NCBI GenBank assembly: GCA_026417625.1
Contig: JAOACW010000003.1
Location: 76,699 to 140,698, forward strand
DNA from: Syntrophales bacterium
Lineage (GTDB): Bacteria > Desulfobacterota > Syntrophia > Syntrophales > UBA8958
Reading direction: 5' to 3'
DNA length: 64,000 nt
Shown here: one piece after another, positions 19,407 to 38,999 of the stretch
Layout: every line of letters begins with the position of its first letter
Position numbering within the stretch: the first letter of the stretch is position 1
The notes under the pieces: generated by a model
The model's database searches: none
What the model saw: the letters and a program-made list of their open reading frames with translations, nothing else
Told to the model about the DNA's origin: nothing
Position numbers and translations under genes: made by a program

Positions 19407-20198
19407 ATGGGTTATGAAAACATCATCGTTGAAGTTGAAGCCGGTGTGGAGACTATACGCCTAAATAGACCGCAGGCCTTCAACTCATTAAACGACGCGA
19501 TTGGAGAAGAGCTGGAGGCGGAAATAGAAAACTGCGCTAAAGATCCTTCGATAAAAGTATTGATTATAACTGGCGAAGGAAAGGCTTTTTGTTCTGGCGG
19601 TGATATAACGTTTTTTAAGAAATACTTTGAATCTGATCCTTCGGAGCCTTTTAGGCAGCTTATAAAGAGACTTAATATCGTTATACTTACCATTAGGAAA
19701 ATGCCCAAACCTGTTATTGCAGCCATAAATGGAGCTGTAGGAGGAGCGGGATTTAGTCTGGCAGCTGCATGTGATCTGAGGATATGTGCCTCTTCTGTTA
19801 GGTTCCGCCAGGCTTACACTTCCATTGGAATGACGGGTGATGGCGGCTGGTCGTTACTTGTTCCTCTTCTCATTGGTTTTGGTAAGGTTACGGAATTACT
19901 GCTTTTGGATCCTGTATTTGATGCTCAACAAGCCCTTGCATGGGGCCTGGTACATCAAGTGGTGGAGGATGGGGAGCTTGAAAGTACGGTTAAAGGTGTT
20001 GCGCGGAAACTAGCTACAGGTCCTTCAACGGCATTTGCAATAGCGAAAGAAAACTTAAACCAGGCTATGCTTGGTCTGCTGGAAAAACAGCTCGAGTTGG
20101 AGAGAATGGGTATGATTAGGGCGTCTTACACGTCGGATTATATAGAGGGTGTGCATGCTTTTCTGGAAAAGCGGGCACCAAGGTTTACCGGAGGGTGA
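19407..20198 (+). CDS. Enoyl-CoA hydratase/isomerase family protein
   Basis: 263 aa; crotonase signature FCSGGDI, AAINGAVGGAG. Confidence 0.88.
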   Translation: MGYENIIVEVEAGVETIRLNRPQAFNSLNDAIGEELEAEIENCAKDPSIKVLIITGEGKAFCSGGDITFFKKYFESDPSEPFRQLIKRLNIVILTIRKMPKPVIAAINGAVGGAGFSLAAACDLRICASSVRFRQAYTSIGMTGDGGWSLLVPLLIGFGKVTELLLLDPVFDAQQALAWGLVHQVVEDGELESTVKGVARKLATGPSTAFAIAKENLNQAMLGLLEKQLELERMGMIRASYTSDYIEGVHAFLEKRAPRFTGG

Positions 20199-20232
20199 GG
20201 ATATTTGGGATTTAGCGTTTAGTGAAAATTTA

Positions 20233-20261
20233 TTGACATGCATTTATATTTTTACTAAAAT
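20233..20261 (+). promoter_or_regulatory. Sigma70-type promoter of the aromatic operon
   Basis: TTGACA (20233-38), 17 nt, TAAAAT (20256-61), with an AT-rich upstream region. Confidence 0.7.
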
Positions 20262-20284
20262 GAAATAAATTTAAAGGATGCGCG

Positions 20285-20380
20285 ATGGATAGACCGCAAC
20301 TCATTTCAACACGCTATTTTTGGTTTGGTTATTTTTACGTGGGGAGGTCTGCCCATTGCGCCCCGAGGTTTTTAACGTAA
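20285..20380 (+). CDS. Leader peptide of the aro operon, rich in Tyr/Phe/Trp codons
   Basis: SD AAAGGA lies 6 nt upstream. MDRPQLISTRYFWFGYFYVGRSAHCAPRFLT has 7 aromatic codons in 8 positions (20315-20338). A terminator follows. Confidence 0.75.
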   Translation: MDRPQLISTRYFWFGYFYVGRSAHCAPRFLT

Positions 20381-20401
20381 GGTAAGCTAAAAGAAAAAAC
20401 C

Positions 20402-20445
20402 AAGGCCGTGGGCAGAGGAAAACTCCCCACGGCCTTTTAATTTTT
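20402..20445 (+). terminator. Attenuator (Rho-independent) terminator upstream of aroF
   Basis: Stem AAGGCCGTGGG (20402-12) / CCCACGGCCTT (20426-36), then TTTTAATTTTT. Upstream segments 20348-55 and 20339-46 are complementary to parts of it. Confidence 0.75.
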
Positions 20446-20491
20446 CTGGTCGTAGGGAGTGTAAGGGTCCCGGCAGGCGTGGAGGTGATCC

Positions 20492-21508
20492 ATGGTTATT
20501 GTAATGAAGAAAAACGCTACGGAACAACAGATTAACACAGTTATTGAGTGGATAGAGTCCGTTGGTTACAGGACCCATCTATCGAGGGGAGTGGAGAGAA
20601 CCATCATTGGTGCCATTGGGGATAGCAGAGGTCAGAATCATCTGACGTATCTCAGCATTATGCCCGGTGTGGAGAAGGTGATGCCAATTCTGAAACCATA
20701 TAAACTCGCCAGTCGGGAGTTCAAAGAAGAGGATACAATTGTAAGGGTGAGGGACATCCAAATCGGGGGCAACAGATTTACAGTGATCGCAGGTCCCTGC
20801 GCCGTCGAAAGTGAGGAACAGCTCATGGAATGTGCTTACGTAGCGAAGAAAGCGGGTGCTCATCTGTTGAGAGGAGGCGCATACAAACCACGAACTTCGC
20901 CTTATAGTTTTCAGGGTATGGAAAAGGAAGGATTGATCATTCTCAGGAAAGTGAGTGAATGCACTGGGTTACCTGTGGTTACAGAAGTGGTAAATACCAC
21001 TGATGTTGACCTGGTCGAGGAATATGCAGACATCATCCAGATAGGAGCAAGGAATGTACAGAACTTTGCCCTTCTAAAGAGAGTGGGAATGGCAAGAAAG
21101 CCTGTCCTTTTGAAAAGAGGTATGATGACTACTATCGAAGAGCTTTTGATGTCAGCAGAATACATTCTTTCCTCAGGGAATAGCCAGGTGATTCTCTGTG
21201 AGAGAGGCATCCGGACGTTCGAAACGGCTACCCGCAATACACTAGATATAAGTGCCGTTTTGGTACTTAAGGAATTGAGTCACTTACCCGTTATAGTGGA
21301 TCCCAGTCATGCATCCGGTAATTGGAGATACGTGATACCTTTAGCACGAGCTGCAGTGGCTGTGGGTGCCCACGGTGTTATCGTCGAAGTACACCCTGAA
21401 CCGGAGAAAGCAGTGTCTGATGGTATGCAATCTCTGAAACCGGAGAAATTTTATAGATTGATGGAAGAAGTCACTTTTCTGGCACGCACTATAGGGAAGG
21501 AGGTGTAG
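20492..21508 (+). CDS. aroF: 3-deoxy-7-phosphoheptulonate (DAHP) synthase, type I-beta, with an N-terminal ferredoxin-like regulatory domain
   Basis: 338 aa. A ~75-aa N-terminal extension, then a KDO8PS-like barrel ([32 protein letters not shown]). Confidence 0.9.
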
Positions 21509-21515
21509 GTTCTAG

Positions 21516-22607
21516 ATGAACCGCATTAGGGTAAATCTATCAAGCCGCACAGCTGATTCCCATGAGATAATAATTGGTGCTCATATTCTTGACCGGGTGG
21601 CTTTTATTATATCCAGGAGTGGGTGGGGTAACAGATATGTCATCATAACTGACGAGAATGTTTTAGAGATCCATGGTTCGACTGTTCTTGATCATTTCCG
21701 GGCAGTGGGGATTCAATGTGATGTTCTCACTATTCCCCAGGGTGAGTGTTCTAAAACTATGCTTACATGTTTGAAATTGGCGGAACAGCTTGCGGACTTA
21801 GAAGCGGATCGGAAAACCGCACTTGTTGCCCTAGGGGGTGGGGTTGTGGGAGATATTACGGGATTTCTCGCCTCCATATACATGAGGGGTGTAAGTTACA
21901 TCCAGATTCCTACGACATTGATGGCTCAGGTAGACAGTGCCATTGGAGGAAAAACGGGAGTTAACGATGAAACTGGAAAGAACATTCTGGGAACATTTTA
22001 TCAACCGACGGCGGTGTTCATCGATGTTTCTTTACTGAAGACATTGCCTGATTGTGAGTTTCAAAACGGAATTGCGGAGATTGTCAAGTACGGTATTATA
22101 GAAGACCCCTCGTTGCTCGATCTGTTGGAGGAAAATTTTACTGAATTGAGAAGAAACGAGTCGATACTTGTAGAGACTGTAGCCCGTTGTTGCAAGATAA
22201 AAAAGGGAATCGTAGAGATTGACGAGAAGGAGCTAAGTATTAGGAGGGTTTTGAACTTCGGTCATACAGTGGGACATGCAATTGAGGTGGAATCGCAATT
22301 TTCAATTTCGCATGGGAGAGCGGTGTCCATAGGGATGTGGGTGGCTACTTGTTTGTCGGAAGCTTTGGGTTACCTCTCGTCTGAATCCCGCATAAGGGTC
22401 GGTGAGATCTTTGGTAAGCTTAACCTTCCTATGCAGATCCCCAGTTATATAAGTGTTGAGGGATTGATGGAAAAGGTAAAGAGGGACAAAAAGAAGGAAG
22501 GTGAGAAGATAAATTTTGTACTTCTTAAAAAACTGGGTATGCCTTTTATAAATGGAGGTGTTCCTATGGAAACTCTACGGCAGGTAATAGAGGGGAATAT
22601 GAGCTGA
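21516..22607 (+). CDS. aroB: 3-dehydroquinate synthase
   Basis: 363 aa; GGGVVGDITGF, PTTLMAQVDSAIGGKTGVN, NFGHTVGHAIE. Confidence 0.92.
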   Translation: MNRIRVNLSSRTADSHEIIIGAHILDRVAFIISRSGWGNRYVIITDENVLEIHGSTVLDHFRAVGIQCDVLTIPQGECSKTMLTCLKLAEQLADLEADRKTALVALGGGVVGDITGFLASIYMRGVSYIQIPTTLMAQVDSAIGGKTGVNDETGKNILGTFYQPTAVFIDVSLLKTLPDCEFQNGIAEIVKYGIIEDPSLLDLLEENFTELRRNESILVETVARCCKIKKGIVEIDEKELSIRRVLNFGHTVGHAIEVESQFSISHGRAVSIGMWVATCLSEALGYLSSESRIRVGEIFGKLNLPMQIPSYISVEGLMEKVKRDKKKEGEKINFVLLKKLGMPFINGGVPMETLRQVIEGNMS

Positions 22608-23686
22608 TGGAGATTACATTAGAAAGGATTCGGTTAGCCATACGGGAAGTTGATGAAAAAATAGTTAGTTTGCTTAATGAGCGGGCACGTCTTGCGGTAC
22701 AGATTGGCAAACTGAAGGAAATTAAAAATGTAGATATTTTCGACCCTGTTCAAGAAATGAAGGTGTTGAATCATATAAGCAACGTAAACCATGGCCCAAT
22801 GAGCGATGAAGACCTAAGAGCTATTTACAGGGAAATACTTTCCACCTCTCGAAAATTGCAGAAGCCTCTCACCGTTGCATGTTTGGGACCGGCTGGTTCC
22901 TTCAGTCATATAGCTTTGAGAAAGGTGTTCGGAAGTAGTGTGGAGGTGTGTTTCACACCGAATATCGGAAATGTTTTCGACGAGGTGGAGAAAGAGAAGG
23001 TAGATTACGGACTTGTGCCCCTCGAGAATTCTCTTGAAGGTTCTGTGACACAGACATTAGATCGTTTAGTAGTGACCACCCTCAGTATTAGGGCCGAGAT
23101 TTGTCTTAGGATATCTCACTATCTTTTGTCTAATGAAAAATCACTTAGAGACATAAAGAGGGTTTATTCTCACCCTCAGGCACTTGGCCAGTGCCGCGAG
23201 TGGTTGTCAAGGAACCTTCCCCACACTACCTGGGTGGGTGTGGATAGCACGGCAGATGCTGCTCGTAAGGCAGGGGTTGATGAGGGTTCGGCAGCCATAG
23301 GAAGTTATCTAGCTTCAGAAATTTACGGTATTCCTATTCTTGAAAGAGGCATTGAGGACTACCCCCATAATATTACTCGATTTGTGGTTCTTGGCAGAGG
23401 AGAAACAGCACCTACAGGTATTGACAAAACGTCCATCATCATTGCTACACCTCATGTTCCAGGAGCACTGTACCGGGCGCTCGAGCCCTTTGCTCAGGAG
23501 GCGATTAATCTTTTGCGTATTGAATCCCATCCTAGCAGAGAACATATATGGGAATACAGGTTCTTTATCGATCTGGAGGGACATGTGGATGATCAGAAGG
23601 TCAGAAGATGTTTAGATGAGGTTAAGAGAAGGACAACACTACTTAAAGTTTTAGGATCGTATATGCAGGATAAGGGGGTTGTATGA
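22607..23686 (+). CDS. pheA: Bifunctional chorismate mutase / prephenate dehydratase (P-protein)
   Basis: 359 aa; N-terminal CM helix (IREVDEKIVSLLNERARLA), PDT domain (VACLGPAGSFSH, PLENSLEGSV), ACT region (TSIIIATPHVPGALYRAL..ESHP). Confidence 0.9.
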   Translation: MEITLERIRLAIREVDEKIVSLLNERARLAVQIGKLKEIKNVDIFDPVQEMKVLNHISNVNHGPMSDEDLRAIYREILSTSRKLQKPLTVACLGPAGSFSHIALRKVFGSSVEVCFTPNIGNVFDEVEKEKVDYGLVPLENSLEGSVTQTLDRLVVTTLSIRAEICLRISHYLLSNEKSLRDIKRVYSHPQALGQCREWLSRNLPHTTWVGVDSTADAARKAGVDEGSAAIGSYLASEIYGIPILERGIEDYPHNITRFVVLGRGETAPTGIDKTSIIIATPHVPGALYRALEPFAQEAINLLRIESHPSREHIWEYRFFIDLEGHVDDQKVRRCLDEVKRRTTLLKVLGSYMQDKGVV

Positions 23687-24366
23687 TCTGTGTTTCCATA
23701 TTACCTGAAACAGAAGAAGAGGCAAAGGATCTGATCATACGTGCATCCGGAGTTGCAAAAGCTGTAGAGTTGCGGATCGATAGGCTTAAATTTCCCAATC
23801 TTGAACTATTAAGAAAGTTCTGTACCGGTTATCTGGTTGTGACAAATAGGCGTAGGGAAGATGGGGGGTACTTTGATGGAACGGAGGAGGAGAGAATTGA
23901 GTCTCTTAAGGAAGCTGTAATATCTGGGGCCGATTATGTAGATGTGGAATTGGGCTCGGATCATAAGCACATTGATGGCTTAAGGGAACTGATAGATCGT
24001 GAGGGTAACAGGACAAGATTGATCATATCCCATCATGATCTTTCGGGCACACCACCACTCAACGAGATGAAGAATATATATTCCATGTGTCGTTCACTGG
24101 GGGCTGATGTGGTAAAAATTGTAACAAACGCCCATTCTGTTGCAGATAGTCTACGTGTCCTTAATCTCATTACGTGGGCCCATGAAGCGGGCGAAGAGAT
24201 AATCGCCTACGCTATGGGTAAGGCGGGTGTGATAAGTAGGGTTATGGCCATTCTCCTTGGGGGCCACCTGAATTACGTTTATCTGGATGGGGAATATTCT
24301 ACAGGTACGGGTCAATTAAGTTTGACAGAAATGATTAAAATCCTCGAAATGGTAGGACGTGAATAA
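23683..24366 (+). CDS. aroD: 3-dehydroquinate dehydratase, type I
   Basis: 227 aa; VELRIDRL, ISHHD, and KIV (the Schiff-base Lys context). Confidence 0.85.
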   Translation: MICVSILPETEEEAKDLIIRASGVAKAVELRIDRLKFPNLELLRKFCTGYLVVTNRRREDGGYFDGTEEERIESLKEAVISGADYVDVELGSDHKHIDGLRELIDREGNRTRLIISHHDLSGTPPLNEMKNIYSMCRSLGADVVKIVTNAHSVADSLRVLNLITWAHEAGEEIIAYAMGKAGVISRVMAILLGGHLNYVYLDGEYSTGTGQLSLTEMIKILEMVGRE

Positions 24367-25195
24367 GAGTTCGGCAAAATACGGAGTTTTTGGAGACCCT
24401 GTATCTCATAGTTTGTCTCCTCTGATGCACTTAGCCGCTTTTCAGGCTTTGGGTGTTAATGCGTCTTATGAGGCTTACACAGTTTCGGATGCCGAGAGGT
24501 GCATGGAGATCATCAGGAAGCTTGATATTATAGGAGCAAGTGTGACCATGCCATTGAAGGAGAAGGTTTTGAAATACTGCGATCATGTGGATCGACATGC
24601 AGAAGTGGTTGGAGCGGTGAATACCTTAGTTATTTCGGGAAATAAAATAAGTGGTTACAATACAGATTGGATTGGGGTTAGAGAGGCTGTTGGGAGTAGA
24701 AAAAACGTTAAGGGAAATGTGGTAGTAGTTGTTGGTGCAGGAGGAGCTGCTCGTGCGGCGGTGTACGCTGTCATTCAGAATGGAGGTATTCCTGTGGTTG
24801 TGAGTCGCAGAAAGGAACAAGGGGAGGCAGTAGCCCGCCATTTTGGTTGCCAGTACTGTCCTTTAGGTGAGATTGGAGATCTGAAGGCCGATGGTATGAT
24901 AAACGCAACCCCTGTAGGTATGACACCATTTACCTCTCATATGGTGGTTGAAAGGGAGGTACTTGCACGTTTTAACTGGGTGATGGATATGGTCTATAAA
25001 CCTATTGAGACCAAACTTCTAAGAGAGGCCTCTGCGCTGGGCATCGAAACGATAGATGGTGTGTCCATGTTTGTGCATCAGGGGGCGGAACAGTTCAGGA
25101 TGTGGACTGGTATGAACCCTCCTTTGAAGGTTATGGAACAGGTAGTCCGGTTGGCGTTGAATGATCTAGCTTCTAGTTGTGGGGAGAAGATTTAA
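24359..25195 (+). CDS. aroE: Shikimate 5-dehydrogenase
   Basis: 278 aa; GDPVSHSLSPLMH, NVTMPLK-like (SVTMPLKE), GYNTDWIG, VVGAGGAARA. GTG start. Confidence 0.9.
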   Translation: MNKSSAKYGVFGDPVSHSLSPLMHLAAFQALGVNASYEAYTVSDAERCMEIIRKLDIIGASVTMPLKEKVLKYCDHVDRHAEVVGAVNTLVISGNKISGYNTDWIGVREAVGSRKNVKGNVVVVVGAGGAARAAVYAVIQNGGIPVVVSRRKEQGEAVARHFGCQYCPLGEIGDLKADGMINATPVGMTPFTSHMVVEREVLARFNWVMDMVYKPIETKLLREASALGIETIDGVSMFVHQGAEQFRMWTGMNPPLKVMEQVVRLALNDLASSCGEKI

Positions 25196-26454
25196 TGGAA
25201 ATTAGATTTATAGCTCCGGAGCATAAGCGGGAAAGGACTGTGAGAGTTCCAGGATCTAAGAGTTTAACACAAAGGGCTTTTGTTATAGCATCGCTCGCTG
25301 AGGGCAATTCTCTCATAAGGAATGCCCTGCTCTCTGAGGATACGAGGCTGTTGATGGAGTCTCTTGCTCGTTTTGGGGCGGATTTTAGTGTGAGTGAAGA
25401 AGGTGTTTTGGTTAAAGGGACAGGTGGTAAGCTGAAATCTACAGATCGACAAATTTATCTCGGGAATAATGGGACGGCACTTCGTTTTCTTCTTAGTATC
25501 GCCGCCTTGGGGAAAGGTGTATACCGTTTTACGGGAGATCCGCGCCTTCAGGAGAGGCCCGTTGGTCCCCTTGGGGAGATTTTGGTAAAGATGGGTGCGC
25601 GTATTGAATATCACAAAAAAGATGGTTGTATTCCCTTAGATGTTCATCCGTTTCGGTTACAAGGTGGAAAGTTCCGACTGCAAGATATGGAGAGTAGTCA
25701 ATTTGTTTCGTCATTGATGATAAGTGGTGTTTTTACAGGGAAAGGTTTGGAAATCGTATTGGAAGGCAAACTTTTATCCCTACCGTACATTCACATGACA
25801 GCGGAGGTCATGCGGGCTTTCGGTGTGGATGTGGAAGTGAGATCCAATAGGATAAAGGTGCCTGGAGGACAATGCTATAAGGCAAGGGAGTGGGCGGTTG
25901 AAGGTGATGCTACTAGTGCCTCGTATTTTCTGGCTCTTGCTCCCCTGTGCCAGAAAAAAATTAGGGTTGAGAGCATTTCAAGCAATTCGGTTCAGGGTGA
26001 TATAGGATTTCTAAGGATTCTCGAGAACCTCGGTTGTGAAATCCAAAATGGAGAAAATTGGGTTGAAGTCAAAGGGGGGAAAATGCCCACAGGTCAGCTT
26101 GAGTTCGATATGGGTGATATGCCTGACCTCGTTCCCACTTTGGCTGTTATTGCCGCTGTTCGTCCGGGTAGGACTGTGATAAAGAACGTGCCTCATTTGC
26201 GCATAAAGGAGAGCGACCGGATAGCGGCACTGGCGAGAGAATTATCGAAGATGGGAGTTGAGGTCATAGAGAGGCCTGATGGTATGGTGATAAATGGTGG
26301 TAATCCACGTGGTACAGAAGTGGAAACGTATAACGATCATCGTATTGCTATGAGTTTTGCCGTTTTGGGAAAGGTCGTGAAAGGAGTGTCCATCAGAAAT
26401 CCTCGCTGTGTGGATAAGTCCTTTCCCAGTTTTTGGATTCTTCTTGAGGGGTAA
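25195..26454 (+). CDS. aroA: 3-phosphoshikimate 1-carboxyvinyltransferase (EPSP synthase)
   Basis: PGSKSLTQRAF, LGNNGTALRFL, HLRIKESDRI, YNDHRIAMSFAV. ATG 25195 overlaps the aroE stop (TAATG). Confidence 0.92.
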   Translation: MEIRFIAPEHKRERTVRVPGSKSLTQRAFVIASLAEGNSLIRNALLSEDTRLLMESLARFGADFSVSEEGVLVKGTGGKLKSTDRQIYLGNNGTALRFLLSIAALGKGVYRFTGDPRLQERPVGPLGEILVKMGARIEYHKKDGCIPLDVHPFRLQGGKFRLQDMESSQFVSSLMISGVFTGKGLEIVLEGKLLSLPYIHMTAEVMRAFGVDVEVRSNRIKVPGGQCYKAREWAVEGDATSASYFLALAPLCQKKIRVESISSNSVQGDIGFLRILENLGCEIQNGENWVEVKGGKMPTGQLEFDMGDMPDLVPTLAVIAAVRPGRTVIKNVPHLRIKESDRIAALARELSKMGVEVIERPDGMVINGGNPRGTEVETYNDHRIAMSFAVLGKVVKGVSIRNPRCVDKSFPSFWILLEG

Positions 26455-27008
26455 TGGAAAAAATATTTTTGATAGGATACCGATGCACAGGGAAGACAAG
26501 TGTGGGTAGAAAATTGGCAGAGAAGCTTGATGTATCTTTTTTTGATAGTGATGAATTGGTGGTAGAAAGAGCTGGATGCTCGATTTGTGATATAGTGTCC
26601 AGGTGGGGTTGGCCTTATTTTAGGACTTTGGAGAAGGAAGTTGTGAAATATCTAGCAAAGGTGCAAGGTCCTGGGGTGGTGGCTTTGGGAGGTGGATCAG
26701 TTATGGATGAGGAAAATGTTGATGCGCTAAGAGGAAAAGGTTTCTTTGTGTGGTTGTATGCCGATGTCAATACAATTGTCAGTCGTATGATTAAAGATAA
26801 GAAAACGTCATCTACACGTCCTTCACTCACTGGAGATGACGTTTACGGAGAGACACAGCAAGTATTGAGTATACGTGAGGGTGTTTACAGATCAATAATG
26901 GATGCGAAAATAGATACGAGAGGGAAGGAATTGGAACGTGTCGTTGATGAAATAATCTGGGAGCGGGAGAAGTGGCGGGTAACACGATTGGACAGCTGTT
27001 CAAAGTAA
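26454..27008 (+). CDS. aroK: Shikimate kinase
   Basis: 184 aa; Walker A GYRCTGKTSVG, DSD, GGG. The tail overlaps aroC by 37 nt. Confidence 0.88.
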   Translation: MEKIFLIGYRCTGKTSVGRKLAEKLDVSFFDSDELVVERAGCSICDIVSRWGWPYFRTLEKEVVKYLAKVQGPGVVALGGGSVMDEENVDALRGKGFFVWLYADVNTIVSRMIKDKKTSSTRPSLTGDDVYGETQQVLSIREGVYRSIMDAKIDTRGKELERVVDEIIWEREKWRVTRLDSCSK

Positions 27009-28033
27009 CCACGTGGGGTGAATCCCATGGGACTGCCTTGGGTGTTGTTGTAGACGGGTGTCCTCCGAGAATTCCCATTTCCCGTGACGAGATTCAGGAG
27101 GAACTGGAAAGGCGAAAGCCGGGAACCGGAGATGGAACTTCGCCACGGAGAGAATCTGACACCGTTGAGATTCTCTCCGGTGTCTTTCAGGGAATGACAA
27201 CTGGAACCCCTATTGCCATGATCATAAGGAACGTAGACACCGATGTTACCCCATATGAGACTATGTCTCGCATCTTCCGCCCGGGACATGGAGATTATAC
27301 GTACTGGAAGAAGTACGGAGTGCGTGACTACCGCGGTGGAGGAAGAGCGTCTGGTAGGGAAACGGTAGCCCGTGTTGCTGCTGGTGCTATTGCTAGGAAA
27401 GTAATAGGTTTAGCGGGTATTGAAGTTCATTCGTACACGATCTCTTTGGGTGGGGTAGTGGCAAGAGAATTCTGTCCTGAGGTCGCAAGGGGTAATGTTC
27501 TACGCTGCCCTGACGAGAAGGCGGCTGAAGCAATGCTTGATGTTTTGGAAAAATGCCGCAATCAGGGGGATACCGTTGGAGGTGTGGCAGAGATACGTGT
27601 TAGGGGATGTCCACCTGGGCTTGGGGAACCGGTGTTTAATAAGCTAGACGCAGACCTTGCGGCGGCATTGATGAGTATAGGGACTGTTAAGGGTGTCGAA
27701 ATTGGTGCGGGATTCAAGGCTGCTTTTATGAGGGGTTCGGAGTGTAACGATGCTATGGAATCTGGGGGATTTTGTTCTAACCATGCAGGTGGTATCCTGG
27801 CGGGCATAAGTACAGGGCAGGACATAGTTATCAGGGTTGCTTGTAAACCTATTCCTTCCATTAGACTTGAGCAAAAGACGGTGGATATAGAAGGGAGACC
27901 GGTAAAGATCAAGATCGAAGGACGTCATGATGTTTGTGTACTGCCAAGGATTCTCCCTGTATGTGAGGCTATGGTATGTATCGTTTTGGCTGATCATCTT
28001 TTACGACAGAAGGCTCTGGGATTGGTGGAGTAG
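26972..28033 (+). CDS. aroC: Chorismate synthase
   Basis: 353 aa; TWGESHG, GRSSARETAARV-like (GRASGRETVARV), GRHDVCVLPR. Confidence 0.92.
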   Translation: MAGNTIGQLFKVTTWGESHGTALGVVVDGCPPRIPISRDEIQEELERRKPGTGDGTSPRRESDTVEILSGVFQGMTTGTPIAMIIRNVDTDVTPYETMSRIFRPGHGDYTYWKKYGVRDYRGGGRASGRETVARVAAGAIARKVIGLAGIEVHSYTISLGGVVAREFCPEVARGNVLRCPDEKAAEAMLDVLEKCRNQGDTVGGVAEIRVRGCPPGLGEPVFNKLDADLAAALMSIGTVKGVEIGAGFKAAFMRGSECNDAMESGGFCSNHAGGILAGISTGQDIVIRVACKPIPSIRLEQKTVDIEGRPVKIKIEGRHDVCVLPRILPVCEAMVCIVLADHLLRQKALGLVE

Positions 28034-28042
28034 ATTTATACG

Positions 28043-28795
28043 ATGGGTTTGGGTTTTGATAATGCGACCATTGGAGTAGTAGGCGGCACCCGTGGCATGG
28101 GACGTTGGTTGGCTGATTTTTTTCGTGAAAGGGGTTTCTGTGTTTACGTCTCGGGTCGGAATACGCCCGCTGATTCTAGTACATTGGCCGAGTTGTGCCA
28201 AGTGATAATTGTTGCTGTGCCTATTTCAGTAACATGCGATGTGATAAGGGAATTAGGACCTCGTCTCCCCGATGACAGGTTGCTCGTAGATGTTGCCTCA
28301 CTGAAGAAGAGGTCGGTAGAGGCAATGCTGGAGAGTTCTACCTGTGAGGTAGTCGGTGTTCATCCTCTTTTTGGGCCAGCTGTTGAGTCAATAGCGGGAG
28401 AAAATGTGGTGGTATGTCCGGGAAGAGGCCAATCGGGTATGGAATGGATCTGCCGTACGTTTGTGGAAGCAGGAGCACGGGTGACAGTGACAACCCCAGA
28501 TCACCACGATCGAGTTATGGCTGTAATTCAGGCAATTAACCATCTGAATACAATGATTTTTGGTAAAGTTGTCAGGGAGTCGGGTTTGTCCGAGGAAGAA
28601 TTAGAGCGTTATTCTACTCCTTCTTTTCGTCAGAAATGGGAGCTCTTAAAGAGGATAGACGAACACCCCGAATTATATAGAGACATTATCACTCACAATG
28701 AGTACGTGGAGTCCATTGGGGCGCTTTATCTTGATGCAACTTTAGAACTGATGAACACACTCATAAAAGAGATTGACATAGCGGGCAAATTTTAG
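28043..28795 (+). CDS. tyrA: Prephenate dehydrogenase
   Basis: 250 aa; Rossmann GVVGGTRGMGRW, VGVHPLFGP, HD..MAVIQAINH. Confidence 0.85.
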   Translation: MGLGFDNATIGVVGGTRGMGRWLADFFRERGFCVYVSGRNTPADSSTLAELCQVIIVAVPISVTCDVIRELGPRLPDDRLLVDVASLKKRSVEAMLESSTCEVVGVHPLFGPAVESIAGENVVVCPGRGQSGMEWICRTFVEAGARVTVTTPDHHDRVMAVIQAINHLNTMIFGKVVRESGLSEEELERYSTPSFRQKWELLKRIDEHPELYRDIITHNEYVESIGALYLDATLELMNTLIKEIDIAGKF

Positions 28796-28801
28796 TATAT
28801 T
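28773..28801 (+). promoter_or_regulatory. Internal sigma70-type promoter for trpL-trpEGDCFBA
   Basis: TTGACA (28773-78, inside the last tyrA codons), 17 nt, TATATT (28796-801). The predicted TSS is only ~2-4 nt before the trpL ATG. Confidence 0.6.
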
Positions 28802-28810
28802 TAGAATAAT

Positions 28811-28870
28811 ATGAAATGTGTAGAATTAATACAAAGAGAATCAAGCTGGTGGTGGTGCTCCGAAAAATAG
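28811..28870 (+). CDS. trpL: trp operon leader peptide
   Basis: MKCVELIQRESSWWWCSEK, with three consecutive TGG codons (28847-55). Four-segment alternative hairpins follow. Confidence 0.8.
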   Translation: MKCVELIQRESSWWWCSEK

Positions 28871-28905
28871 GGGCACCCCACAGCTAAAAAGTTAAGAAAA
28901 TAAAT

Positions 28906-28948
28906 TGCCGTGGGGACCCCAAGGGGAGGTGCTCCGCGGCAGTTTTTT
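28906..28948 (+). terminator. trp attenuator terminator (segments 3:4)
   Basis: TGCCGTGGGG (28906-15) pairs with CTCCGCGGCA (28932-41) in a 10-bp stem that includes G-U pairs, followed by GTTTTTT. The antiterminator 28870-81/28910-20 excludes it. Confidence 0.75.
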
Positions 28949-28957
28949 ATGAATTTG

Positions 28958-28985
28958 AAAGGCCGTGCTTAGGAGCACGGCCTTT
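28958..28985 (+). terminator. Second, perfect 12-bp hairpin between the trp attenuator and trpE
   Basis: AAAGGCCGTGCT-TAGG-AGCACGGCCTTT, then AAATTT. The arms share AAGGCCGTG/CACGGCCTT with the aro attenuator terminator. Confidence 0.5.
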
Positions 28986-29012
28986 AAATTTGGAATTGAG
29001 TGAGGTTTATAG

Positions 29013-30527
29013 ATGATTGAACCATCATTTGCAGAATTTGTGGAACTCTCTAGGAGGGGCAATATCATACCTGTCTACAGGGAAGTATTGGCGGATACAG
29101 AAACTCCTGTCACTGTTCTTTTTAAGTTCTCACAAAATGATCCGGTGTTCCTTTTGGAAAGTGTTGAGGGTGGAGAGAAGTGGGGAAGATACTCTTTTTT
29201 GGGTTTCGATCCCCGGATGGTTGTTACGGTTGGTGATGAAGAGGTAAGGATCAGAGAGTACGGTGAAGAAAAGGTCCACAAGCATAACGGAGACCCGTTT
29301 GGCTTTCTGCGGAAATTTTTCAAAAAATTAAAAGTTGTGAGTGTTGGGGAACTCCCGCGATTTTGTGGTGGCGCAGTGGGTTACATTTCCTATGAGGCGA
29401 TTCGTTTTTTTGAAAGCAGGTTGAGTAAAATCAAAAGGGCAGGTGATGGATGGGATTACGCCGCCTTTATGATAACCGACACGCTTGTTGTGTTTGACCA
29501 TGTTAAACATACGTTGAAGGTTGTCGCACTGGCGTATGTGGATGGTGGTGATTTGAAGTCACTTTATGAAACGTGTGTGCAGAAGATTGATAAAGTAGTC
29601 CGCAGATTGAGAGATGAAGGGATCTCAGGTTTCTGTACCGTTCCGGTTGCTGAATACAAACCAGAGTTTAAGTCCAATATGGAACCAGAAGAATTTAAAT
29701 CGATGGTGGAAAGAGCAAAAATGAATCTAGTAAATGGCGATATAATTCAGGTGGTACTTGCTCAGAAGTTCACCGCTGTATGTGAGTTGTCGCCGGTGAA
29801 CCTGTATAGAGCCCTTCGTTTTATAAACCCTTCACCTTACCTATTTTTCCTCAGGTTCGGTGACAGATATATAATTGGTTCATCACCTGAGGTGCTCGTA
29901 CGTCTCGAGGGCTACAACGTAGAGCTCCGCCCCATAGCGGGGACCAGGCCAAGAGGAAAAACGGAGCAAGAAGATCGCAAATTGGCTGACGAACTTCTTA
30001 AGGATATGAAGGAGAAAGCTGAACATGTAATGCTCGTTGATCTGGCTCGAAATGATCTAGGGCGAATTGCCAGGTTGGGTAGTGTCCAGGTTACTTCTTT
30101 TATGAACGTGGAAAGGTACTCTCATGTCATGCACCTCGTATCAACTGTGGTGGCAGAACTTGATGATGGGAATGATGCCTTTGATGTTTTCAAATCTGTG
30201 TTTCCTGCGGGAACCCTGACAGGTGCTCCGAAGATAAGGGCAATGGAAATTATAGATGAACTGGAGCCTGTAGGTAGGGGTCCTTATGGTGGTGCGGTGG
30301 GTTACTTTTCATTCAACGGTGGGATGGATTTTGCCATCACCATTCGCACGATCCTTATGAGTGGTAATCAAATATGTGTGCAGGCAGGTGCGGGTATAGT
30401 TGCGGATTCCGATCCGGTTGGAGAGTTCGAGGAGACAATGAACAAGGCGGCGGGCATGATCACAGCGGTCCAGATGGCGGCCAGTGGTCTTGACTTAGTT
30501 ACTCTGCAGAGGGGGGATGTAAAGTGA
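29013..30527 (+). CDS. trpE: Anthranilate synthase component I
   Basis: 504 aa; LLESVEGGE, SPEVLVR, GTRPRG, LTGAPKIRAMEII, RGPYGGAVGY. Confidence 0.93.
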   Translation: MIEPSFAEFVELSRRGNIIPVYREVLADTETPVTVLFKFSQNDPVFLLESVEGGEKWGRYSFLGFDPRMVVTVGDEEVRIREYGEEKVHKHNGDPFGFLRKFFKKLKVVSVGELPRFCGGAVGYISYEAIRFFESRLSKIKRAGDGWDYAAFMITDTLVVFDHVKHTLKVVALAYVDGGDLKSLYETCVQKIDKVVRRLRDEGISGFCTVPVAEYKPEFKSNMEPEEFKSMVERAKMNLVNGDIIQVVLAQKFTAVCELSPVNLYRALRFINPSPYLFFLRFGDRYIIGSSPEVLVRLEGYNVELRPIAGTRPRGKTEQEDRKLADELLKDMKEKAEHVMLVDLARNDLGRIARLGSVQVTSFMNVERYSHVMHLVSTVVAELDDGNDAFDVFKSVFPAGTLTGAPKIRAMEIIDELEPVGRGPYGGAVGYFSFNGGMDFAITIRTILMSGNQICVQAGAGIVADSDPVGEFEETMNKAAGMITAVQMAASGLDLVTLQRGDVK

Positions 30528-31105
30528 TTCTCATTATAGATAACTATGATTCATTTACTTACAATCTACTTCAATATGTAGGCCAGCTTGGTAAGGATTG
30601 TTTAGTAAGGAGAAACGATGAAATTACATTGGAAGAGGTGGAATGCTTGAACCCGGGGGCGATAATAATTTCACCAGGGCCGGGTACACCCGAACAAGCG
30701 GGGATTACTGTTCCCGTTATCTGTAAATTCTACAAATTGATACCCATTCTCGGGGTGTGTCTTGGGCATCAGTCTTTGTGTTATGCATTCGGCTCAGAAA
30801 TTACAAGAGCGTCATCATTGATGCATGGAAAGACATCCTTAATCAAGCACGACGGACAAACTATTTTTAAGGGTTTGCCTAATCCTTTTATAGCGGGGCG
30901 TTACCATTCCTTGATTGTCAGAAAAGAGAGTGTACCTTCCTGTCTGAAGATAAGTGCCGAAACTGAAGAGGGAGAAGTTATGGCTGTAAGGCACAGGGAT
31001 TATCTTGTCGAAGGGGTACAGTTTCATCCGGAAAGTGTCCTTACACCACAGGGTAAGAGGATTATCAGAAATTTTTTGGATCTTGTGGATGAACGAGGGA
31101 GATAA
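30524..31105 (+). CDS. trpG: Anthranilate synthase component II (glutamine amidotransferase)
   Basis: 193 aa; IDNYDSFTYNL, GVCLGHQ, QFHPES. Confidence 0.92.
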   Translation: MILIIDNYDSFTYNLLQYVGQLGKDCLVRRNDEITLEEVECLNPGAIIISPGPGTPEQAGITVPVICKFYKLIPILGVCLGHQSLCYAFGSEITRASSLMHGKTSLIKHDGQTIFKGLPNPFIAGRYHSLIVRKESVPSCLKISAETEEGEVMAVRHRDYLVEGVQFHPESVLTPQGKRIIRNFLDLVDERGR

Positions 31106-31115
31106 GGGGGTGTCT

Positions 31116-32126
31116 ATGATAAAAGAAGCGCTTGTTAAGCTTGTAAATCGCCAGGATCTGGCGGAGGAAGAAATGGAGTTGGTTATGACAGAAATAATGG
31201 AGGGCAAAGCGACGGATGCACAAATTGCATCTTTACTCACAGCTTTGAGGATGAAAGGGGAAACCGTTAAGGAGGTGAGTGGAGCTGCACGAGTGATGCG
31301 AAGAAAGGCTTTGCGTATTGATGCTCGTTCGTCGGTTGTTGTGGATACGTGTGGAACAGGCGGTGACAACCGGGGGACTTTTAATATCTCAACAACGGCA
31401 GCTTTCGTCGTGGCCGCTGCAGGCATAACGGTGGCCAAACACGGGAATAGAGCTGTTTCCAGTGGGTGTGGCAGTGCCGATCTTTTGGAGGCACTGGGTG
31501 TGAACATTGAAGCGACGCCTGATGTTGTGGAAGAGTGCATTCAACAGGTAGGTATAGGTTTTCTTTTTGCACCTCGATTGCATGGGGCAATGAAGTATGC
31601 CCTCGGTCCCCGAAGAGAAATGGGTTTTAGGACCATATTTAACATGCTGGGCCCTCTTACGAATCCTGCATCGGCAACAGCTCAGCTCGTGGGAGTATAT
31701 GCACCAGAATTGACAGAGATGTTTGCCCATGTACTCAGGAACCTTGGGGTTAAGAGGGCTTTCGTTGTCCATGGTTCTGATGGGTTGGATGAGGCCACTG
31801 TCACAGGGGAAACGAGGGTTTCGGAGTTGAGGGAAGGTGTCGTTACAACATATAACATTGATCCTATTCGTTATTTTGGGGAGTATTACAGTTTGGAAGA
31901 ACTCCGCGGTGGCGATGCTTATACGAATGCAGAAATAACAAAATCTATACTCGCCGGGGAGGATGGGGCAAAGCGGAAGATAGTGATTCTTAACGCAGGG
32001 TTAGCTATTGTAGCGGCAGGAAGGGCGAGTACTCTTGAAGAGGGGATTAAGATTGCGGAAGAACGTATAGATGATGGATCTGCTCTTAGGAAACTTCGGG
32101 AACTTATAGATGTGAGCAATTCCTGA
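31116..32126 (+). CDS. trpD: Anthranilate phosphoribosyltransferase
   Basis: MIKEALVKL..; DTCGTGGD, KHGNRAVSS, NPA. The start is ATG 31116, not the track start 31005, which lies inside trpG. Confidence 0.92.
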   Translation: MIKEALVKLVNRQDLAEEEMELVMTEIMEGKATDAQIASLLTALRMKGETVKEVSGAARVMRRKALRIDARSSVVVDTCGTGGDNRGTFNISTTAAFVVAAAGITVAKHGNRAVSSGCGSADLLEALGVNIEATPDVVEECIQQVGIGFLFAPRLHGAMKYALGPRREMGFRTIFNMLGPLTNPASATAQLVGVYAPELTEMFAHVLRNLGVKRAFVVHGSDGLDEATVTGETRVSELREGVVTTYNIDPIRYFGEYYSLEELRGGDAYTNAEITKSILAGEDGAKRKIVILNAGLAIVAAGRASTLEEGIKIAEERIDDGSALRKLRELIDVSNS

Positions 32127-32135
32127 GAAGGTAAT

Positions 32136-32915
32136 ATGATTGCAAACATTCTGGCTAAAAAACGGGAAGATGTCGAGGAGGCGAAGAGGAGGAGGCCTAT
32201 AAAGGAAGTTATTAGCGGGTGTGGGCAAAATAGGATCAGAAACTTCCCATTTGAAAGGGTACTTGAGGAAAAACCTGTAGCCATAATTGCAGAGATAAAG
32301 TTACGTTCGCCATCGGTGGGAACGCTGAGAGAAAATGTGGATGTGGTCCGTATTGCTGAATTATATGAAGCGTGTGGTGCTGCTGCGATTTCTGTGATAA
32401 CTGAACGGCATTTTTTTAGAGGAAGTGATGATTACATCACTTCTGTGCGAAACAGTGTAAGTGTACCTTTACTTAGAAAAGACTTTATCATCGATGAGTA
32501 CCAGTTGTATGAGACACGTTTTCTTGGTGCGGGTGCCTTGCTGCTAATTGTTGATATTTTGGATGACGAACAGCTTAGTGATTACATTCAACTTGCTGAT
32601 GAGTTGGGTTTATCCGCCGTGGTGGAGATTCACAATGAAAGAGGACTACATAGAGCTTTAAAAAACGGTGCGAGGATCATTGGGATAAACAACCGGGATC
32701 TTACTACCTTTAAAACGGATTTGAACACCACTTTTAGACTGGCACCTCTAATTCCGCCGGGGAGGTGTATCATAAGTGAAAGCGGAATCGAGGATAGAGA
32801 TGATATAGAGAGTCTTCTGGCAATAGGGGTCAAGAATTTTCTCATCGGTGAAGCACTGATGAGAGCTCCGGATATTTCTTCGAAATTGAGGAGTTTTATA
32901 GATGCACTGCGTTGA
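32136..32915 (+). CDS. trpC: Indole-3-glycerol-phosphate synthase
   Basis: 259 aa; IAEIKLRSPS, LRKDFIIDEYQ, GINNRDL, ESGI. Confidence 0.92.
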   Translation: MIANILAKKREDVEEAKRRRPIKEVISGCGQNRIRNFPFERVLEEKPVAIIAEIKLRSPSVGTLRENVDVVRIAELYEACGAAAISVITERHFFRGSDDYITSVRNSVSVPLLRKDFIIDEYQLYETRFLGAGALLLIVDILDDEQLSDYIQLADELGLSAVVEIHNERGLHRALKNGARIIGINNRDLTTFKTDLNTTFRLAPLIPPGRCIISESGIEDRDDIESLLAIGVKNFLIGEALMRAPDISSKLRSFIDALR

Positions 32916-32922
32916 CAATAGG

Positions 32923-33642
32923 ATGGGTGTCAAGATCAAGGTGTGCGGTATTACAAGAAAACATGACGCGCTTTTGGCTGCTAGTTTGGGGATACACGCC
33001 CTGGGATTTATATTCTATCTTGAGAGTCCCCGTAATGTCGAACCAGAAGCAGCAAGTGAGATAATAAAACTGGTTCGTGAGCTTTATCCTCATTGTCAGA
33101 ATTTCCTTCCAGGCGCGTTGAAGATGGAAGAGAGACCTCTTTTTCGTCCTGCGTTTGTTGGTGTGTTTGTTAATGAGGATCCCTTTAGGGTAAAGGAGAT
33201 AATGGATTACTGTGGTTTAGATTTTATTCAGCTCCATGGTGATGAATCACCCGATTATTGCCGTTTTTTTCCAAAAGATAAGGTGATAAAGGTATTTACA
33301 CTGCGATCGAAGGATGATCTTTATCTTATAGAGAAGTACGATTTAGAGGTGGTTATGATAGATAATCGTACTGAACATCTCTATGGGGGGACGGGGTTAA
33401 CGGCGGATTGGGACCTGGCAAAGTTTGTGGGAGCCCGCTACCGTTTAGTTCTCTCGGGTGGTTTGAACTCCGGGAATGTAGCGGATGCTATCCGTAAGGT
33501 TTTACCTTTTGCAGTGGATGTAAATAGCGGTATTGAAAGTTCCCCAGGAGTAAAGGATTCGTTTTTAATGGTGGATTTTGTCTTGAAGGTAAGGGAGATC
33601 TGCAAGGAGATAGGTTATGAAGCGATATCGCTTACCGGATAA
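32923..33642 (+). CDS. trpF: Phosphoribosylanthranilate isomerase, with a ~20-25 aa internal insertion
   Basis: [11 protein letters not shown].., [31 protein letters not shown]. An alternative start at 32902 would overlap trpC. Confidence 0.88.
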
Positions 33643-34816
33643 AAGAGGTCATTTTGGTACCTTTGGTGGGCGTTACGTAGCAGAGACGCTCATGTCTGCT
33701 TTGCTCGAGCTTGAAGAAGAGTATAAGAAGTTCCGCGTGAATAGAGAATTTCGAAGGGAGTTGGATGACTATTTGCGTGATTACGCAGGGAGGGAAACAC
33801 CCCTATATTACGCAGGGCGTTTGACGGAACGCATTGGGGGAGCAAAGATTTATCTCAAAAGAGAGGATCTGAACCATACAGGTTCCCACAAGATAAATAA
33901 CACCATAGGTCAGGCCCTGCTCGCAAAAAGGATGGGGAAATCTAAGATAATTGCTGAAACTGGAGCAGGGCAACATGGAGTGGCAACGGCCACTGCTGCT
34001 GCTCTTTTCGGCATGGAATGTAAGATCTATATGGGAAGGGAAGATATGCGTAGACAGGCTCCAAATGTGCACAGGATGCGGATTTTGGGTGCAGAGGTGA
34101 TTGCTGTAGATTCTGGCACTGCGACTTTGAAAGATGCTATGAATGAAGCTATGAGAGCGTGGGTCACAAATGTGCGGGATACGTTCTATATAATTGGCTC
34201 CACTGCAGGTCCCCATCCCTATCCCATGATGGTCAGGGATTTTCAAAGTGTGATTGGCAGGGAGACGAAACGTCAGATCCTGAAAAAAGAGGGGAAGTTG
34301 CCGGATGTGCTTGTGGCGTGTGTGGGTGGTGGTAGCAATGCTATGGGTCTTTTTTATCCTTTCCTTGAGGATGATGTAGCCCTCGTGGGTGTAGAAGCGG
34401 CGGGTAAGGGTATAGAAACAGGAAAACACGCCGCATCTGTGACTGCAGGAAATTTGGGGGTTCTCCACGGTAACAAAACGTACCTACTTCAGGATGAATA
34501 TGGGCAGATCAAGGATGCCCATTCCATTGCTGCCGGGTTGGATTATCCAGGAGTGGGTCCAGAACATAGCTACCTGAGGGAACAGGGAAGGGCAAGTTAC
34601 GTGGCTGTTAAAGACGGTGAAGCATTGGAGGCCTTCTTTACTTTGTCACGTTTGGAGGGAATAATCCCTGCGTTGGAAAGTGCCCATGCTCTCGCATATG
34701 CTATGAAACTGGCTTCAGAAATGGGAAGGGATCGTATCGTTGTTGTCAATCTTTCTGGCAGAGGGGATAAGGATACGGGTATAGTTGTGGAGATGATGCA
34801 AAATGGGAAGGATTGA
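33617..34816 (+). CDS. trpB: Tryptophan synthase beta chain
   Basis: 399 aa; [34 protein letters not shown]. Confidence 0.95.
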
Positions 34817-35603
34817 TACTCGTTTCGCCACATTAAAGGGGAAAGGTGAAAAGGCTCTAATTGCTTATATAACTGCAGGTCACCCTGACTTAGAGATAAC
34901 TGAAGCCGTGATACCTGCGCTTGCTGATGCAGGAGTAGACGTTGTAGAAATTGGTGTTCCTTTTTCAGATCCAACAGCGGATGGACCCATTATCCAAGGG
35001 TCGTCTCAAAAGGCTCTTCGATCCGGAACGACTCTTCCGTCCATTTTGGAAATGATAAAGAGATTCAGAAATCGTGTTGCTATACCCCTAGTTTTGTTTA
35101 GTTACTACAATCCGATCTTTGTTTTTGGTGCGGAAAGATTTGCGAGAGTTGCAGCTGAAAGTGGAATTGACGGTATACTTGTCGTTGATTTGCCCCCTGA
35201 GGAGGCTTGTGAGCTCAGGTGTTATACGGACAAGGCTGGACTTGATTTTATACCTCTGGTTGCGCCGACAACGAGCAGTAAAAGGATGAGACTCATTGTA
35301 AAAGAGGGATCAGGTTTCATTTATTACATAACTCTAACCGGGGTAACGGGTACGGGCCGACCTTTTGTGGAAGAGGTTAAGGAAAGAGTCCTTGAGATTA
35401 AGTCATTTTCCCCTCTCCCTGTGGTAGTTGGATTTGGTATCTCAACTCCTGAGCAGGCTGCGGAAATTGCGTCTTTTGCCGATGGTGTTGTCGTTGGCAG
35501 TGCATTTGTCAAGCTGATGGATAGTGTTTCGAGAGAAGATTTGGTGGAAAAGGTTTGTAAATTCGCATCCTCAATTAAACTCGCAATGGATAACTCTAGA
35601 TGA
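34803..35603 (+). CDS. trpA: Tryptophan synthase alpha chain
   Basis: 266 aa; [33 protein letters not shown]. Confidence 0.92.
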
Positions 35604-38396: not shown

Positions 38397-38999
38397 TTAA
38401 GCTTTTTCTTCTTCGCAGGCGCCATTATTCGAACTGCGTTTTTTGCATATTGCAACCTTAGCAGGTCGTAACAACCTCCCATTCAAAAGGTACCCTTTCT
38501 GGTATTCTTCGACAATCTCATTTTCTTCATGATGTTCGCTTTCAACCTGAGCGAGAGCTTCGTGGTAATTAGGATCGAAATAGCAGTTCAAACAATCGAT
38601 AGGTTCCACGCCGTACTTCGCTAAACATGACATCATTTGAGATCTGACCATCTTGAGGCCTTCTTTGAAAGCTGCGAAGTTTTCTGTTTTTTCCGATTGT
38701 TCTATCGCTCTGTCGAGGCTATCCAGAACTGGTAACATATCCCGTATCAGATTTTCCTGACCGAATTTTATTACCTCTGCTTTCTCCCTAGCAGATCTTT
38801 TTTTGTAATTTTCCAAATCTGCCAGTGCACGGAGGTATTTGTCATAGTTCTCCGCCGCCTCTTTTTCTTTTTGTTTTAGCTTCTCCTGAAGTTCTTCCCC
38901 TTCATACGGTTTAACTTCAGGTAATGATGATACCTTTTCTTCAAAGGTTGTATCCTGTGAAGATATTTCCTTTTTTTCTACTATTTCTTTTTTCTCCAT
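38397..38999 (-). CDS. grpE: Nucleotide exchange factor GrpE
   Basis: 200 aa; coiled-coil N-terminus, [20 protein letters not shown]. Confidence 0.9.

Follow-up and report, generated by a model that had tools for sequence, protein, structure and literature searches.

How is the common aromatic (shikimate) pathway adjusted to the supply of tyrosine, phenylalanine and tryptophan in a Syntrophales bacterium? The question is raised by a short leader at positions 20233-20445 of a 64,000-nucleotide stretch of contig JAOACW010000003.1 (the whole stretch is called the window in the following), which stands in front of the DAHP synthase gene aroF. As judged from its sequence and from those of its relatives, the leader is very probably a classical ribosome-mediated attenuator of the operon aroF-aroB-pheA-aroD-aroE-aroA-aroK-aroC-tyrA. 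This mechanism had been put forward in an earlier sequence-only reading of the same DNA, and it is supported here, since the anatomy that it requires is present in the window and conserved in the relatives. The genes which that reading had regarded as gated, i.e., the shikimate trunk, pheA (chorismate mutase-prephenate dehydratase, CM-PDT) and a gene for prephenate dehydrogenase, were recovered by Pfam assignment as well.

A check of the sequence placed the promoter, the Shine-Dalgarno (SD) sequence, the open reading frame (ORF) of 31 codons, its tract with seven aromatic codons out of eight, and the hairpin exactly where they had been reported (Table 1). The promoter agrees with the sigma-70-type consensus in 11/12 positions and belongs to the two best sites returned by a promoter scan of the region from 19 to 30 kb; transcription would be expected to begin near 20268, giving a predicted leader transcript of ≈ 225 nucleotides (nt) ahead of aroF. 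The aromatic tract by itself is not beyond chance, because translation of the 64-kb window in six frames yields three tracts with at least seven aromatic codons out of eight; the one at 20315-38 is the only one of them that lies inside an ORF with a start codon. The other aromatic-rich stretches noted, with 6-7 of eight codons, lie in frames of the + strand at 38964, 59785, 42187 and 37126, none of them in an ORF with a start codon. Such stretches arise as by-products where DNA is rich in T, and their occurrence elsewhere in the window makes the tract alone weak evidence. It is the conservation in relatives which places the element beyond chance.

For this comparison, 80 loci from a set with one genome per species and 80 metagenome contigs were scanned, 155 of which had enough sequence upstream of aroF. 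The aroF protein of the window is itself assigned to a Syntrophales metagenome-assembled genome in public data. The species-genome loci all stem from metagenome-assembled genomes of Syntrophales, Syntrophaceae or Smithella, with an aroF protein identity of 72-81%; identity to the window protein was at most 81% in the metagenome contigs. The protein search and the locus scans gave the closest aroF matches only, such that the sampled range is the Syntrophales. A search for nearer relatives with the single terminator of the window led to a 92% identical aroF protein, on a contig that begins 12 nt before the gene. With the requirement of at least six aromatic codons out of ten in a short ORF (sORF) upstream of aroF, the search of relatives proposed in the sequence-only reading returned an aromatic-rich sORF followed by terminator hairpins in 154 of the 155 usable Syntrophales loci. 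A Trp codon is part of 141 of these 154 tracts, 140 of which combine codons for Trp, Phe and Tyr. Among 78 aligned leaders the ORF has 27-33 codons, the tract starts at about codon 10, and its mean content amounts to 0.9 Trp, 2.7 Phe and 3.6 Tyr codons. The order of the residues varies by lineage and their aromatic class is constant (YFWFGYFY, YWWFGFYYY, FWFSYYYFY, FYYWNYYY and others); such a reshuffled order within a constant class is, at the level of sequence, the signature of regulatory codons and not of a functional peptide. In locus L009 (2380-2440), a 24-nt segment (TTCTGGTTTAGCAGCTATTATTAT) is present twice in tandem within the aromatic tract, and the script found no intact aromatic-tract ORF with an upstream start codon in this locus; the duplication may be genuine or may have arisen in the assembly.

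The surroundings of the tract are conserved along the same lines. A TTGAC box precedes the sORF in all 78 relatives, at a median distance of 59 nt from its start, and an SD-like motif is found before the start in 63 of the 78. The upstream neighbour is variable, with a homolog of the enoyl-CoA hydratase gene found in only 1/80 loci, and the order aroF-aroB-pheA is retained in 71/72 relatives. Because the downstream order is constant and the upstream gene is not, the element belongs to aroF. A hidden Markov model (HMM) of the family, built from 77 relatives of alignment A1 (see below) with the window left out, was used in an nhmmer search of the 64 kb. It matched the window at 20280-20445 (E=3e-19, 63.9 bits, model positions 8-173 of 210) and gave no other match in the 64-kb window. 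The homology between window and family extends over the sORF start, the tract, the GGTCTGCCC motif and the first terminator.

The leader RNA of the window was shown by computed folding to have two predicted, mutually exclusive folds, either helix 1:2 together with the 3:4 terminator and its U-tract, or the 2:3 antiterminator (segments as in Table 1). In the folding test suggested by the earlier reading, the structure of 20268-20450 has z = -3.98 and is more stable than all 200 shuffles. Segment 1, which had escaped that reading, is opposed to segment 2 with standard pairs in 15 of 16 positions (14 Watson-Crick and one G-U pair, one mismatch); the duplex energy is -26.3 kcal/mol, and the helix is present in the minimum free energy fold of the window leader. 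The terminator hairpin 20402-12/20426-36 (-24.9 kcal/mol) is followed by UUUUAAUUUUU up to 20445; it was skipped in a simple terminator scan only because its 13-nt top exceeds the loop limit of the scan. Two antiterminator pairings had been claimed, and both are exact 8-nt complementarities in the window, 20348-55/20409-16 and 20339-46/20423-30. The first one is conserved in the relatives. The second one, GTGGGGAG with CTCCCCAC, is not (54% paired, versus 19-48% in slid controls); it is a window-specific pairing which strengthens the antiterminator there. Both helices together provide -23.4 kcal/mol, and -37.2 kcal/mol with the loop folded. A weak alignment to RF01859 Phe_leader suggested that the aromatic tract might also pair with the A-rich spacer that follows the stop codon (B:D); this pairing exceeds shuffles only slightly (mean z = -0.64) and was kept out of the model.

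Alignment A1 comprises 79 leaders, and pairing in it was scored as the percentage of paired cells against slid controls. Its most conserved block is segment 2, GGTCTGCCCAT, located in the 3' end of the sORF (window 20346-61). The block is translated as Arg-Ser-Ala-His in the window and, in a different frame, as Val-Cys-Pro-Ser in the relatives; because the window reads it in another frame, the block must be conserved as RNA. It is complementary both to the block at the sORF start, GATGGACAGAC (segment 1), and to the terminator 5' arm, AGCCATGGGTAGA (segment 3). The 2:3 antiterminator helix is 85% paired (26-43% in slid controls), and the number of sequences with double-sided changes exceeds that of each of 500 shuffles. 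For the 1:2 helix, 70% of the cells are paired (32-47% in slid controls), and segment 1 persists even in leaders with a shifted start codon (L016, L022, L074, L080). RNAalifold predicted a first and a second terminator hairpin (T1 and T2), with compensatory changes in 13/22 pairs. Consensus folds of growing transcripts gave 1:2 with segments 1 and 2, then 2:3 once segment 3 was added, and finally 1:2 plus the terminators in the full leader.

From the first and the last tract codon, the median distance to segment 2 is 32 and 8 nt, respectively, in the leaders (31 and 10 nt in the window). The stop codon follows segment 2 at a median distance of 9 nt (16 nt in the window), with ≈ 24 nt more to the start of segment 3. 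When a ribosome was placed on any codon of the tract and the transcript was ended before segment 4, helix 2:3 formed with p>0.5 in 76/78 leaders; the same truncated-transcript fold gave p = 0.90-0.93 for the window leader. Most relatives carry a conserved SD-like GGAGG 3-9 nt before the leader stop (A1 columns 136-142; CGAGG at 20365-69 in the window). A small local hairpin between this motif and GGUCU of segment 2 is possible, or the motif might slow the ribosome at this place.

From these elements, the following sequence of events can be proposed. If charged tRNA-Tyr, tRNA-Phe or tRNA-Trp became scarce, the ribosome would stall in the tract, between segments 1 and 2; it would thereby block helix 1:2 and keep segment 2, 10-31 nt past the stalled codon, free. 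The free segment 2 would capture segment 3 as this leaves the RNA polymerase, such that no terminator could form and the operon would be transcribed. With all three tRNAs charged, the ribosome would reach the stop codon, which separates segment 2 from segment 3; hairpin 3:4 would then fold, and transcription would stop near 20445. The Tyr and Phe inputs, with three codons each, should dominate, and the single conserved Trp codon would act as a weaker third input; sensing of all three amino acids is suggested by the conservation of the codons.

Several points weigh against such an attenuator. It is predicted here from sequence, and the coupling of transcription and translation in Syntrophales is an assumption of the attenuation model. 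In equilibrium partition-function folds with ribosome footprints, the terminator wins at every ribosome position. The switch must therefore be kinetic, i.e., co-transcriptional, and attenuation of the E. coli trp operon likewise depends on co-transcriptional kinetics. The full-leader equilibrium model, in which 1:2 paired around the ribosome without any discrimination, was replaced by the truncated-transcript folds given above. Helix 1:2 is weak in most relatives, with a median of -14.7 versus -23.4 kcal/mol for 2:3, and the default of an untranslated leader may be readthrough rather than termination in these cases. The regulatory codons are part of the loop that joins segments 1 and 2, instead of segment 1 itself, so that the exclusion of 1:2 is a steric argument and not one of direct masking. 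A ribosome at the stop codon of the window leader, 16 nt away, leaves segment 2 uncovered, and the blocking ascribed to this position rests on sterics, too. Trp is represented by a single codon, which is missing from ≈ 8% of the leaders. For the C. glutamicum aroR leader, the one experimentally tested aromatic leader before aroF, PMC11802643 reports an effect of Phe limitation only.

Table 1. Predicted features of the aro leader, its operon and the trp leader in the window, and of the additional element found in relatives (positions in the window unless a locus is named).
Feature	Position	Strand	Remarks
sigma-70-type promoter	20233..20261	+	TTGACA 20233-38, 17-nt spacer, TAAAAT 20256-61
SD sequence AAAGGA	20273..20278	+	6 nt 5' of ATG 20285
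Segment 1, GCGCGATGGATAGACC	20280..20295	+	spans leader start codon; pairs with segment 2 (anti-antiterminator)
Leader ORF	20285..20380	+	31 codons + TAA, MDRPQLISTRYFWFGYFYVGRSAHCAPRFLT
Regulatory codon tract YFWFGYFY	20315..20338	+	7/8 codons aromatic: 3 Tyr, 3 Phe, 1 Trp
Antiterminator extension, GTGGGGAG	20339..20346	+	window-specific; partner CTCCCCAC, 20423-30, in terminator 3' arm
Segment 2, GGTCTGCCCATTGCGC	20346..20361	+	antiterminator 5' strand; partner is segment 1 or terminator 5' arm
Segment 3	20402..20418	+	terminator 5' arm AAGGCCGTGGG + CAGAGG; 20408-16 pairs with 20348-56 (antiterminator)
Segment 4	20423..20445	+	terminator 3' arm (to 20436) + U-tract TTTTAATTTTT (20435-45)
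Controlled nine-gene operon	20492..28795	+	Pfam assignments; genes abut or overlap
aroF	20492-21508	+	DAHP synthase with FXD (ferredoxin-like) domain
aroB	21516-22607	+	
pheA	22607-23686	+	chorismate mutase-prephenate dehydratase-ACT (CM-PDT-ACT)
aroD	23683-24366	+	
aroE	24359-25195	+	
aroA	25177-26454	+	
aroK	26454-27008	+	
aroC	26972-28033	+	
Prephenate dehydrogenase gene (tyrA-like)	28043-28795	+	
trp leader promoter	TTGACA 28773 to TATATT 28801		within 3' end of prephenate dehydrogenase gene
trp leader sORF, MKCVELIQRESSWWWCSEK	28811-28870		three Trp codons (WWW) at 28847-55
trp leader hairpin	28844-85		Trp codons paired with GGGGCACCCCAC
trp leader terminator	28902-45, then T6		second hairpin 28951-91
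≈ 140-nt element of one subclade	≈ 2850-3003		loci L040, L046, L047, L065, L069, L072
≈ 140-nt element of one subclade	≈ 1050-1203		loci L157, L159, L160
≈ 140-nt element of one subclade			locus L148

A feature of the family that was outside the reach of the sequence-only reading is its usual pair of terminators. In most relatives T1 and T2, each a hairpin followed by a U-tract, stand in tandem before the SD sequence of aroF; a crude detector reported two terminators in 126/154 tract-bearing loci, and several of its "single" calls are detector failures. The window has the T1-like hairpin only. It offers no match to HMM positions 174-210, and a search of 20446-20491 for a hairpin followed by a U-run found none, so that T2 as defined for the family is missing from the window. 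Where the relatives have their second terminator, the window contains 45 nt of unrelated sequence. At the end of this region, the SD sequence and the start codon of aroF are part of a small hairpin, CGTGGAGGTGATCCATG (20478-94), that could be a device of translational occlusion or incidental. Another variant is met in loci L057 and L059, which retain the T1 hairpin without its U-tract and have a U-tract on T2 only; in A1 columns 213-240, UUUAAAGAG or UUAAAAAAG takes the place of the T1 U-tract in these two.

All four terminator arms have a CCATGG palindrome in common, which allows a helix between the T1 3' arm and the T2 5' arm (F:G). The F:G helix is 96% paired, with covariation not beyond that of shuffles, and the high percentage follows from the shared palindrome. 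With segment 3 held in the antiterminator, F:G forms in 77/77 leaders before the last arm is transcribed; afterwards, T2 beats F:G at equilibrium in 67/77 leaders. On these folds it is thus plausible that antitermination at T1 is handed on to T2 by a relay, and in L057 and L059 regulation would logically require one. The natural variants fit a relay, with T1 only in the window, the U-tract on T2 only in L057 and L059, and both terminators in most genomes. That the family as a whole combines a six-segment relay (2:3, then 4:5, disabling T1 3:4 and T2 5:6) with true sensing of Tyr, Phe and Trp is a combined proposal that has somewhat less than an even chance of being correct.

The element may, on the other hand, be the same attenuator and sense only Phe and Tyr, or only Phe, with the single Trp codon being tolerated and the element not trivalent; this alternative is possible, if rather doubtful. 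It would account for the finding that Trp is represented once in 67/78 leaders and is absent from 8 (within a 10-codon window), as well as from 13/154 in the larger set. The operon itself holds the Phe and Tyr branches, and the trp operon has a WWW leader of its own. Furthermore, the Phe-Tyr-Phe leader of C. glutamicum answered Phe and not Tyr, according to the description in PMC11802643. Against these points stands the TGG codon, which is argued to be used because ≈ 92% of the leaders retain it despite the lineage-specific reshuffling of the tract. Chorismate produced by the operon also feeds Trp synthesis, such that a Trp input is physiologically sensible, and one hungry codon can suffice to stall a ribosome.

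A trans-acting factor as the driver of the switch, be it a protein similar to TRAP, a small molecule, or uncharged tRNA in the manner of T-boxes, with the sORF being incidental, is very improbable. In its favour, no part of the leader ORF is directly complementary to T2 of the relatives, and an additional element of ≈ 140 nt in front of aroF in one subclade makes further inputs conceivable. No T-box, riboswitch or other Rfam family was detected at gathering score, however: a search against Rfam 15 returned none in the window or in 15 relatives, the T-box model gave no match even at E<=10 in 20150-20550 and none at gathering score elsewhere, and GAG/UAG triplet repeats are absent from the window leader. 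The best sub-threshold match, RF01859 Phe_leader at 20302-20442 (21.5 bits versus a gathering score of 55, E=0.27), does not make the element a member of that family. The SD sequence, the start codon, the position of the stop codon and the aromatic class are kept (154/155 loci) while the nucleotides vary, a pattern unexpected for an untranslated spacer, and for this reason the sORF is not regarded as one. Still less credible is a functional aromatic or hydrophobic peptide, or a chance ORF, next to a hairpin that merely stops read-in from the enoyl-CoA hydratase gene (19407-20198): tracts of the kind are not rare in six frames and the hydratase gene lacks a separate terminator, but the element has its own conserved promoter, stays with aroF while the upstream gene differs in 79/80 loci, keeps the RNA motif where the C-terminal part of the peptide shifts frame (window) and the N-terminal block where the start has moved, and none of the other tracts of the window lies in an ORF with a start codon.

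Taken as a ribosome-mediated attenuator, the Syntrophales aro leader can be compared with several known systems. The pheL-pheA and trpL leaders of E. coli each sense one amino acid, by regulatory codons inside segment 1. The Syntrophales leader shares with them the four-segment 1:2/2:3/3:4 architecture, a run of end-product codons and an intrinsic terminator before the first gene; it differs in that its codons are placed in the 1-2 loop and that segment 1 is the region of the start codon. Multivalent leaders, with Thr/Ile or Ile/Leu/Val codons and a single terminator, control the enterobacterial thr and ilvGMEDA operons. Here as there, one peptide mixes codons for several amino acids that depend on the controlled operon, whereas the aromatic trio would be sensed in the Syntrophales case and no sequence relationship exists. 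In the aro supraoperon of B. subtilis (aroFBH-trp), the trp leader is regulated by the TRAP protein. The Syntrophales arrangement resembles it in having trp directly downstream of aro, with an internal promoter and an attenuator before trpE as a second checkpoint for read-in; unlike TRAP control, both of its checkpoints would be leader peptides.

The closest precedents are found upstream of aroF itself. In C. glutamicum, the aroR leader peptide with its Phe-Tyr-Phe motif precedes aroF (Neshat et al. 2014, J Biotechnol, as reported in PMC11802643 and PMC7356990); ribosome-stalling attenuation has been described, and an increase in transcription under Phe limitation was shown by experiment (PMC11802643). 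As in aroR, mixed aromatic codons are located in a leader peptide directly upstream of a DAHP synthase gene. In contrast to aroR as described in these papers (Phe-Tyr-Phe, no Trp), the Syntrophales tract has 7-9 codons including a conserved Trp, the operon has nine genes including pheA and tyrA, and the relatives possess tandem terminators; moreover, the Syntrophales leader belongs to the Thermodesulfobacteriota and aroR to the Actinomycetota. The relation is one of function and context only. The uORFC-13-1 motif of Acholeplasma, a computational prediction of an upstream ORF plus terminator found exclusively upstream of aroF, has been proposed to sense the incorporation of aromatic amino acids, with a U-run that encodes at least one Phe (Brewer et al. 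2021, PMC8632094). It occurs in Mollicutes and was described without the Tyr/Trp mix or the tandem terminators of the Syntrophales leader. The novelty implied by the sequence-only reading is therefore reduced, as aromatic leaders of the mixed type upstream of DAHP synthase genes are already on record in the sources cited above (aroR of C. glutamicum and uORFC-13-1 of Acholeplasma).

In the literature searched, no description of the leader in Syntrophus or delta-proteobacteria was found, although absence there is not proof. The Syntrophales aro leader adds a new family, spread over the order, to a mechanism known from textbooks; the mechanism itself is not new, and the leader would not surprise a specialist. 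Its peculiarities are the three-residue aromatic tract, the location of the codons between segments 1 and 2, and the usually two tandem terminators (one in the window).

The operons aro-phe-tyr and trp are arranged head to tail on one strand (20492-35603), with trpEGDCFBA (29013-35603) directly following tyrA behind its own promoter and leader ORF; no terminator was found between tyrA and the trp leader. The region 28773-29012 appears from its sequence to be a second, classical leader-peptide attenuator before trpE, ≈ 8 kb downstream of the aro leader. Its fold has z = -8.8, and the alternative 2:3 duplex has an energy of -23.3 kcal/mol. The region has no Rfam match. Its WWW leader illustrates that the lineage employs leader-peptide anatomy elsewhere in the same window. 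The trp leader is not a sequence paralog of the aro leader, the HMM of which had no match there.

To our knowledge, almost nothing is known from experiment about gene regulation in Syntrophales syntrophs. The present family, which is moderately interesting and useful both for annotation and for regulation in syntrophs, adds a well-populated attenuator that is not in Rfam 15 across the sampled Syntrophales (Syntrophaceae, Smithella and relatives). Two leader peptides would act in series over the aromatic pathway, Y/F/W for the trunk and the Phe/Tyr branches and WWW for Trp, a layout which gives a simple and testable regulatory map. An attenuator of this kind would imply that transcription and translation are coupled in slow-growing anaerobes. 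Furthermore, the tandem terminators and the natural one-terminator variants provide a small, clean system for the propagation of a signal through alternative hairpins.

A covariance model seeded with the 154 leaders would improve annotation; gene callers now extend aroF upstream or skip the sORF. In the database entries of the clade the leader sORF carries no annotation, and many aroF entries (P0003, P0013, P0022, P0027 and others) have 348-358 instead of 338-342 amino acids; their starts have probably been called too far upstream, within the region of the leader and its terminators. Finally, the additional conserved element of ≈ 140 nt mentioned above (Table 1) follows the second terminator and precedes an aroF that starts with GTG. 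Neither a conserved ORF nor an Rfam match was found in it, and its consensus structure and covariation are weak (6/25 pairs); its motifs include CAAGGCGACGCCUUGAGAAAA, GGACGCAGUCGAAUUG and GACUCUUAGAUUUAAUUUUGAAGGGGGAG.

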